In this document: piece by piece, positions 4,570 to 7,197 of the stretch | Numbering within the stretch: position 1 is the stretch's first letter | How the letters are laid out: every line of letters begins with the position of its first letter | Assembly (NCBI RefSeq): GCF_013315695.1 | Contig: NZ_CP054353.1 | DNA length: 64,000 nucleotides | Strand: one strand, 5' to 3' | From: Escherichia coli | GTDB lineage: Bacteria > Pseudomonadota > Gammaproteobacteria > Enterobacterales > Enterobacteriaceae | Made by a program: the position numbers and the translations under genes | Notes under the pieces: model-generated | Seen by the model: only the letters and a program-made list of their open reading frames with translations | Told to the model about the DNA's origin: nothing | The model's database searches: none

Positions 4570-7197
4570 TTATTCTTCTTCTGGCTCGTCGTCAACGTCC
4601 ACTTCCGGAGCGATTTCATCGTCTCCTTCCGCGGCACTGCCATCGATGGTGTCCAGATCTTCCTCGTCAACCGGTTCAGCAACACGTTGCAGACCCACTA
4701 CGTTTTCATCTTCCGCAGTACGGATGAGGATCACGCCCTGGGTGTTACGGCCCACGATGCTGATTTCTGAAACGCGAGTACGTACCAGCGTACCGGCATC
4801 GGTGATCATCATGATCTGGTCGCAGTCATCTACCTGCACCGCGCCAACCACTAAACCGTTACGTTCGGTAACCTTGATGGAGATAACCCCTTTCGTCGCA
4901 CGCGACTTGGTTGGGTATTCCGCCACTGCGGTACGTTTACCATAACCGTTCTGCGTTGCGGTGAGGATTGCGCCATCACCACGAGGTACGATCAGAGAGA
5001 CGACTTTATCGCCTTCGCCTAAACGAATACCGCGAACACCGGTGGTGTTGCAGCCCATCGCACGGACAAAAGACTCTTTAAAGCGCACCACTTTACCTTC
5101 AGCGGAGAACAGCATTACTTCATCTTCGCCACTGGTCAGGTCAACGCCGATCAGCTCATCGCCTTCAACCAGTTTGATCGCCACTTTACCGGCGGTACGC
5201 AGACGGTTGAATTCGGTGAGGACAGTTTTCTTCACGGTACCGTTAGCGGTCGCCATGAAGACTTTCACGCCTTCTTCAAACTCGGTCACCGGCAGGATCG
5301 CAGTGATACGTTCGTCCTGCTCCAGCGGCAGCAGGTTGACGATCGGACGACCACGCGCGCCACGAGTAGCTTCTGGCAACTGGTAAACCTTCATCGAATA
5401 GACGCGACCACGGCTGGAGAAGCACAGAATATGGTCGTGCGTGTTCGCCACCAGCAGTCGGTCGATAAAGTCTTCTTCTTTAATACGTGCGGCAGATTTA
5501 CCTTTCCCGCCACGACGCTGCGCTTCATATTCCGAAAGCGGCTGATATTTAACGTAGCCCTGGTGAGAGAGCGTCACGACCACATCTTCCTGGGTGATCA
5601 GATCTTCCAGGTTGATGTCTGCGCTGTTGGCGGTGATTTCAGTACGACGTTTGTCACCGAACTGTTCACGAACCAGCTCCAGCTCTTCGCGGATCACTTC
5701 CATCAGACGATCGGCGCTACCAAGAATACGCAACAGCTCCGCGATCTGATCCAGCAGCTCTTTGTATTCGTCGAGCAGTTTTTCGTGCTCAAGGCCGGTC
5801 AGTTTCTGCAAACGCAGATCCAGAATCGCCTGAGCTTGCTGTTCGGTCAGGTAGTACAGACCATCGCGCACGCCGAACTCTGGCTCCAGCCATTCCGGAC
5901 GCGCAGCATCGTCGCCCGCACGTTCCAGCATCGCGGCAACGTTGCCCAGCTGCCACGGATTAGCAACCAGCGCGGTTTTCGCTTCTGCAGGCGTCGGCGC
6001 ATGACGGATCAGTTCGATGATCGGGTCAATGTTCGCCAGCGCCACGGCTAATGCTTCAAGGATATGAGCACGATCGCGAGCTTTACGCAGTTCGAAAATG
6101 GTACGACGGGTCACCACTTCACGGCGGTGACGAACAAACGCCGCGATGATGTCTTTCAGGTTCATGATCTTCGGCTGACCATGGTGCAATGCCACCATGT
6201 TAATACCGAAAGAAACCTGCAACTGGGTCTGGGAGTAGAGGTTGTTAAGCACAACTTCACCGACCGCATCGCGTTTCACTTCAATCACGATGCGCATACC
6301 GTCTTTGTCAGACTCATCACGCAACGCGCTGATGCCTTCCACGCGTTTTTCTTTTACCAGTTCCGCAATTTTTTCGATCAGGCGAGCTTTGTTCACCTGA
6401 TACGGAATTTCGTGGACGATAATGGTTTCACGCCCGGTTTTGGCGTCAACTTCCACTTCCGCACGGGCGCGGATATACACCTTGCCACGACCGGTACGGT
6501 AAGCTTCTTCAATACCGCGACGACCGTTAATGATTGCCGCCGTCGGGAAGTCCGGCCCCGGGATGTGTTCCATCAGCCCTTCAATGCTGATGTCTTCATC
6601 ATCGATATACGCCAGACAACCGTTGATGACTTCCGTCAGGTTGTGCGGCGGGATGTTGGTTGCCATACCTACGGCGATACCGGAAGAACCGTTCACCAGC
6701 AGGTTAGGAATTTTGGTTGGCATGACGTCCGGAATTTTTTCCGTGCCGTCATAGTTATCAACGAAATCGACCGTCTCTTTTTCGAGATCGGCCATCAGTT
6801 CATGGGCAATTTTCGCCAGACGGATTTCCGTATAACGCATTGCCGCCGCAGAGTCGCCGTCGATGGAACCGAAGTTACCCTGACCGTCTACCAGCATGTA
6901 ACGCAGCGAGAATGGCTGCGCCATACGGACGATCGTGTCATAAACCGCCGAGTCACCATGGGGATGGTATTTACCGATTACGTCACCAACGACACGGGCA
7001 GATTTTTTATAGGCTTTGTTCCAGTCATTGCCTAGTACGTTCATGGCGTAAAGTACGCGACGGTGTACCGGCTTCAGGCCATCTCGGACATCCGGCAGCG
7101 CACGGCCAACAATGACCGACATCGCATAATCCAGATAGGAGCTCTTCAGCTCTTCCTCAATGTTGACCGGTGTAATTTCTCTCGCAAGGTCGCTCAT
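4570..7197 (-). CDS. gyrA: DNA gyrase subunit A
   Basis: 875-aa [56 protein letters not shown]...; acidic C-terminal tail DEPEEE; QRDR codons Ser83 (TCG) and Asp87 (GAC) are wild type. Confidence 0.98.

Follow-up and report, generated by a model that had tools for sequence, protein, structure and literature searches.

The window (the whole stretch of E. coli DNA analysed here, 64 kb in length) comes from an E. coli strain nearly identical to MSB1_4I and almost certainly carries a chromosomal gyrA with a wild-type quinolone-resistance-determining region (QRDR), and a phenotype of fluoroquinolone susceptibility is predicted at GyrA from the translated gene. The QRDR call was read directly from the sequence of a conserved housekeeping gene, and chance is not a concern. 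Finding a wild-type GyrA QRDR is nothing new and belongs to routine resistance genotyping, which is also where its relevance lies, this GyrA having no target-site fluoroquinolone resistance. Coordinates of the gene, of the codons discussed and of the neighbouring island are collected in Table 1.

Table 1. Features of the gyrA locus and the adjacent island (window positions)
Feature	Position	Strand	Remarks
gyrA coding sequence	4570..7197	minus	DNA gyrase subunit A, 875 aa plus stop; from ORF list and translation
QRDR, codons 67-106	6880..6999	minus	codon arithmetic; amino acids identical to K-12
Codon 83, TCG (Ser)	6949..6951	minus	wild type; direct codon reading
Codon 87, GAC (Asp)	6937..6939	minus	wild type; direct codon reading
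Catalytic Tyr122, codon 122 TAT	6832..6834	minus	codon arithmetic; present, as in GyrA
GyrA box QRRGGKG, residues 560-566	5500..5520	minus	C-terminal domain; present, as in GyrA
Codon 678, GAA (Glu)	5164..5166	minus	D678E; K-12 has GAC; common lineage polymorphism
Codon 710, TTT (Phe)	5068..5070	minus	S710F; K-12 has TCT (Ser); rare
Extended -10-like TGTTATAAT	7242..7250	minus	44 nt upstream of ATG; conserved in K-12; presumed gyrA core promoter
Mandelate racemase/muconate-lactonizing-enzyme family gene	about 7548-8750	minus	island
MFS transporter gene	8763-10090	minus	island; annotated as frameshifted; ORFs 8763-9998 and 9959-10090
GntR-family regulator gene	10284-11026	plus	island; annotated as frameshifted

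The gene was compared base for base, without gaps, with gyrA of E. coli K-12 MG1655 (b2231; protein NP_416734.1). Both genes are 2628 nt long and differ at 55 nucleotides (97.9% identity); apart from the codons for D678E and S710F, the nucleotide differences (53) are silent, and the two proteins are identical at 873 of 875 residues. K-12 GyrA likewise has 875 aa, with the same start, stop, QRDR, Tyr122 and GyrA box. Alignment to a reference GyrA had been named as the check on the original prediction; since no insertion or deletion occurs in the 2628-nt alignment to K-12, the codon numbering on which that prediction was based is safe. With the ATG at 7197-7195 on the minus strand, codon 67 falls at 6997-6999 and codon 106 at 6880-6882, so that the interval 6880-6999 is exactly the Ala67-Gln106 QRDR. 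Within it the protein does not differ from that of K-12, and the three nucleotide differences are silent (K-12 to window: codon 85 GTC to GTT, codon 91 CGC to CGT and codon 100 TAT to TAC). We found that residues A51, G81, D82, A84, Q106, A119 and A196 are all wild type. All of these are quinolone-associated positions, with 51, 119 and 196 lying outside the classical QRDR. No target-site resistance substitution was thus present in the window GyrA at Ser83, Asp87, G81, D82, A84 or Q106. Hidden resistance substitutions elsewhere in the protein were also considered and are ruled out, the whole of GyrA differing from K-12 only at residues 678 and 710.

The original prediction had called the QRDR wild type, with TCG (Ser) at codon 83 and GAC (Asp) at codon 87, and the strain susceptible at GyrA. 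Both codons read as it stated, and since the QRDR and residues 51, 119 and 196 are identical to those of susceptible K-12, the prediction of susceptibility at GyrA is correct as worded, resting as it does on the sequence of the protein. In its account of how this GyrA differs from the reference it was half complete: Glu at position 678, which it put down to common variation between lineages and not to resistance, is indeed encoded, whereas S710F was overlooked.

Ser83 and Asp87, which belong to helix alpha-4 in the winged-helix domain of GyrA and sit beside the catalytic Tyr122, anchor the water-magnesium bridge to the keto-acid group of the quinolone in the gyrase-DNA cleavage complex; substitutions at these residues weaken quinolone binding. 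With both residues intact, the window GyrA would be expected to bind the drug normally, and would thus add no target-site resistance. The two substitutions relative to K-12 are both in the DNA-wrapping beta-pinwheel of the C-terminal domain, remote from the drug pocket. A single C-to-T transition at codon 83 (TCG to TTG) would give S83L, the usual first-step mutation, and the GyrA of this strain is therefore one transition short of it. Fluoroquinolone-resistant E. coli alleles carrying S83L, D87N/G/Y or other changes concern the same gene and region, but the window gene has none of their substitutions. Since gyrA is the sole target gene in the 64-kb window, the prediction of susceptibility is limited to GyrA; parC, parE, gyrB, plasmid-borne genes and the efflux regulators marR, acrR and soxR lie outside it.

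Among known alleles, that of MSB1_4I (NZ_LR898874.1), a human rectal-swab isolate from Australia, is 100% identical to the window gyrA at the gene level (protein WP_021562961.1), and 190 public contigs carry precisely this protein. A search of the literature for this strain yielded no sequence type or phylogroup. Over the 64 kb the two sequences share 99.99% identity, with 4 mismatches. Only two of these lie within window positions 1-19197, namely 9891 (T/C, in the MFS pseudogene) and 13872 (A/G, in yfaL); the other two are within 18783-64000. The window is therefore not the same record as MSB1_4I, but either a very close relative or another assembly of that strain. Genes with at least 99% identity to the window gyrA were found in just 6 of 5425 complete E. 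coli genomes. The D678E-only protein WP_001281251.1, found in the next closest genomes (AF3, MS 21-1 and LR-28) and in many other strains, has a wild-type QRDR as well, but retains Ser710 instead of Phe. The AF3 gene, which was compared directly, is 2 nucleotides away from the window gyrA, one of them being the codon-710 change, whereas the GyrA proteins of MS 21-1 and LR-28 were assigned through the shared RefSeq accession. A total of 5431 gyrA matches were obtained in complete E. coli assemblies; one match on a record labelled as plasmid, and the one genome among 5426 with no gyrA match, are probably assembly or labelling oddities.

To count variants in complete E. coli genomes (n = 5426), exact 33-nt queries centred on the variant base were used. 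The D678E query matched at least 1361 of the 5426 genomes, O157:H7 strains included, a lower bound because nearby silent variation would block a 33-nt match, and the D678E-only GyrA protein is present on at least 1000 public contigs. Counts of resistant against susceptible isolates in a published pan-genome study were 1 to 152 for the D678E-only allele and 3 to 637 for the D678E+A828S allele (PMC7067475). D678E has also been seen to track sequence type (ST405, ST38 and ST448) beside S83L/D87N, which is the behaviour of a lineage marker (PMC10638923). Its listing after enrofloxacin exposure concerns a single strain, in which it was called resistance-associated without a genetic test (PMC11721436); we regard this as weak evidence for a tie to resistance. 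These data support D678E as a widespread neutral lineage marker, in line with the original prediction; the published alleles with it come overwhelmingly from susceptible isolates, and it ought to be scored as lineage variation, not as a resistance call.

S710F, in contrast to D678E, is rare. The Phe710 query matched 2 of the 5426 complete genomes, MSB1_4I and Z1323HEC0475, while the Ser710 query matched 5269. The gyrA of Z1323HEC0475 differs from the window gene at 62 nucleotides, encodes A828S in addition to S710F, and has no island beside it; the tract around codon 710 that is identical between the two genes is only 89 nt long. Given this many differences and so short an identical tract, two independent C-to-T transitions are the simplest reading of these sequences, although a very short recombination patch may have brought the substitution into both. 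The D678E+S710F+A828S protein is recorded on 95 public contigs which, together with the 190 for the window protein, indicates that S710F is a marker of two clones and not a sequencing error. Since the QRDR is wild type in each allele with S710F, the substitution does not resemble a compensatory change accompanying resistance mutations. None of the papers searched mentions gyrA S710F, and no connection of it with quinolones was found. Residue 710 belongs to the C-terminal DNA-wrapping beta-pinwheel, well away from where quinolones bind at the DNA gate, and S710F would therefore be expected to have no effect on quinolone susceptibility. Structures of the E. coli GyrA C-terminal domain and of the full-length protein exist, including 1ZI0 and 6RKS (PDB sequence search). 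Most likely S710F is a neutral clone marker, and it is usable as such.

Several other explanations have to be weighed against this account. Were the codon numbering off, or the gene the parC paralogue, the codons read would not be GyrA 83 and 87; this is ruled out by the K-12 alignment, in which no gap occurs and both start and stop are shared, together with the family scores. The whole protein scores 1307.7 bits against the NCBIfam TIGR01063 gyrA equivalog profile (cutoff 877) and 1256.9 against the GyrA model NF004043 (cutoff 902), both of which assign it to GyrA, whereas it stays below the cutoffs of the parC models (580.6 for parC_Gneg, cutoff 628.9). It possesses Tyr122, the catalytic residue of DNA cleavage and religation in E. 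coli gyrase, and the GyrA box of the C-terminal beta-pinwheel, which distinguishes gyrase from the ParC of topoisomerase IV. The gene also occupies the orthologous chromosomal position according to the K-12 and MSB1_4I annotations, with yfaA downstream and the ubiG side upstream, and the order yfaT-yfaA-gyrA-(island)-ubiG-yfaL-nrdAB matches that of annotated E. coli genomes. A different matter is whether the strain could be fluoroquinolone non-susceptible despite its wild-type QRDR, through a determinant outside the window such as plasmid-borne qnr, aac(6')-Ib-cr, oqxAB or qepA, up-regulated efflux, or changes in gyrB, parC or parE. The presence of gyrA alone among the target genes in 64 kb leaves room for this, but nothing in the window favours it and we consider it unlikely: where chromosomal resistance of E. 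coli reaches clinical significance, the first step is almost always at GyrA S83, a residue left intact in this strain, and neither qnr, oqxAB, qepA nor aac(6')-Ib-cr is annotated in the part of MSB1_4I that corresponds to the full window.

It could further be argued that S710F, D678E or both alter quinolone susceptibility or supercoiling, so that the allele departs from wild type in function, or that S710F in particular is a recurrent adaptive change in DNA wrapping, in the supercoiling set-point or in tolerance of gyrase-directed agents and not a neutral one. The rarity of Phe710 (two complete genomes) and its occurrence on two backgrounds, which suggests recurrence and possibly hints at selection, speak for such a view, as does the appearance of D678E after enrofloxacin selection (PMC11721436). 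However, D678E-only alleles are found in about a quarter of the genomes and came almost exclusively from susceptible isolates (PMC7067475), both S710F alleles combine with a wild-type QRDR, unlike what a compensatory change would do, and chance would be expected to produce one C-to-T transition twice among thousands of lineages. The position of residue 710 in the DNA-wrapping domain, distant from the drug pocket, is established structural knowledge and speaks against an effect on the drug as well. We therefore think it very improbable that either substitution makes this GyrA functionally other than wild type, and just as improbable that S710F is adaptive; the reading of S710F as a neutral marker is retained.

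Upstream of gyrA, a simple scan for -35/-10 promoters and for terminators returned no site; the promoter role presumed for TGTTATAAT is suggested by its conservation in K-12. Within window positions 7198-7300 the sequence is the same or nearly the same as in K-12 up to TGTTATAAT and a TTTACC motif (7267-7272), beyond which it diverges completely from the K-12 upstream sequence. This divergence is due to a 3.85-kb island of three genes (7253-11126) that in this lineage separates gyrA from ubiG, its direct neighbour in K-12. A hairpin with a perfect 10-bp stem (7318-7327 and 7337-7346) lies just beyond the conserved stretch. Of 5426 complete E. coli genomes, 140 have the island in full length, and strain LR-28 has an intact version of its MFS gene.

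Between the last gene of the island and gyrA there is a 127-nt dispersed intergenic repeat (7411-7537) with 25-nt imperfect terminal inverted repeats. Virtually all E. coli genomes have copies of it at 93-99% identity in intergenic DNA that bears no annotation, with a median of 5 matching places per genome. Judged by the consensus, the repeat may be an ERIC/IRU element.

The gene order of the window begins with yfaT, yfaA, gyrA, the island, ubiG, yfaL, nrdAB, yfaE and inaA, and continues with the glp genes, the rhamnonate genes, the arn operon, pmrD, the men operon, the ela genes and nuoNML. According to the MSB1_4I annotation, an ISNCY-family transposase gene (30250-31209), adjoined by a partial hypothetical gene (31210-31407), has glpC on one side and the rhamnonate (yfaU) genes on the other, and ais (38423-39025), which encodes the LPS core heptose(II)-phosphate phosphatase beside the arn operon, is a pseudogene with an internal stop.
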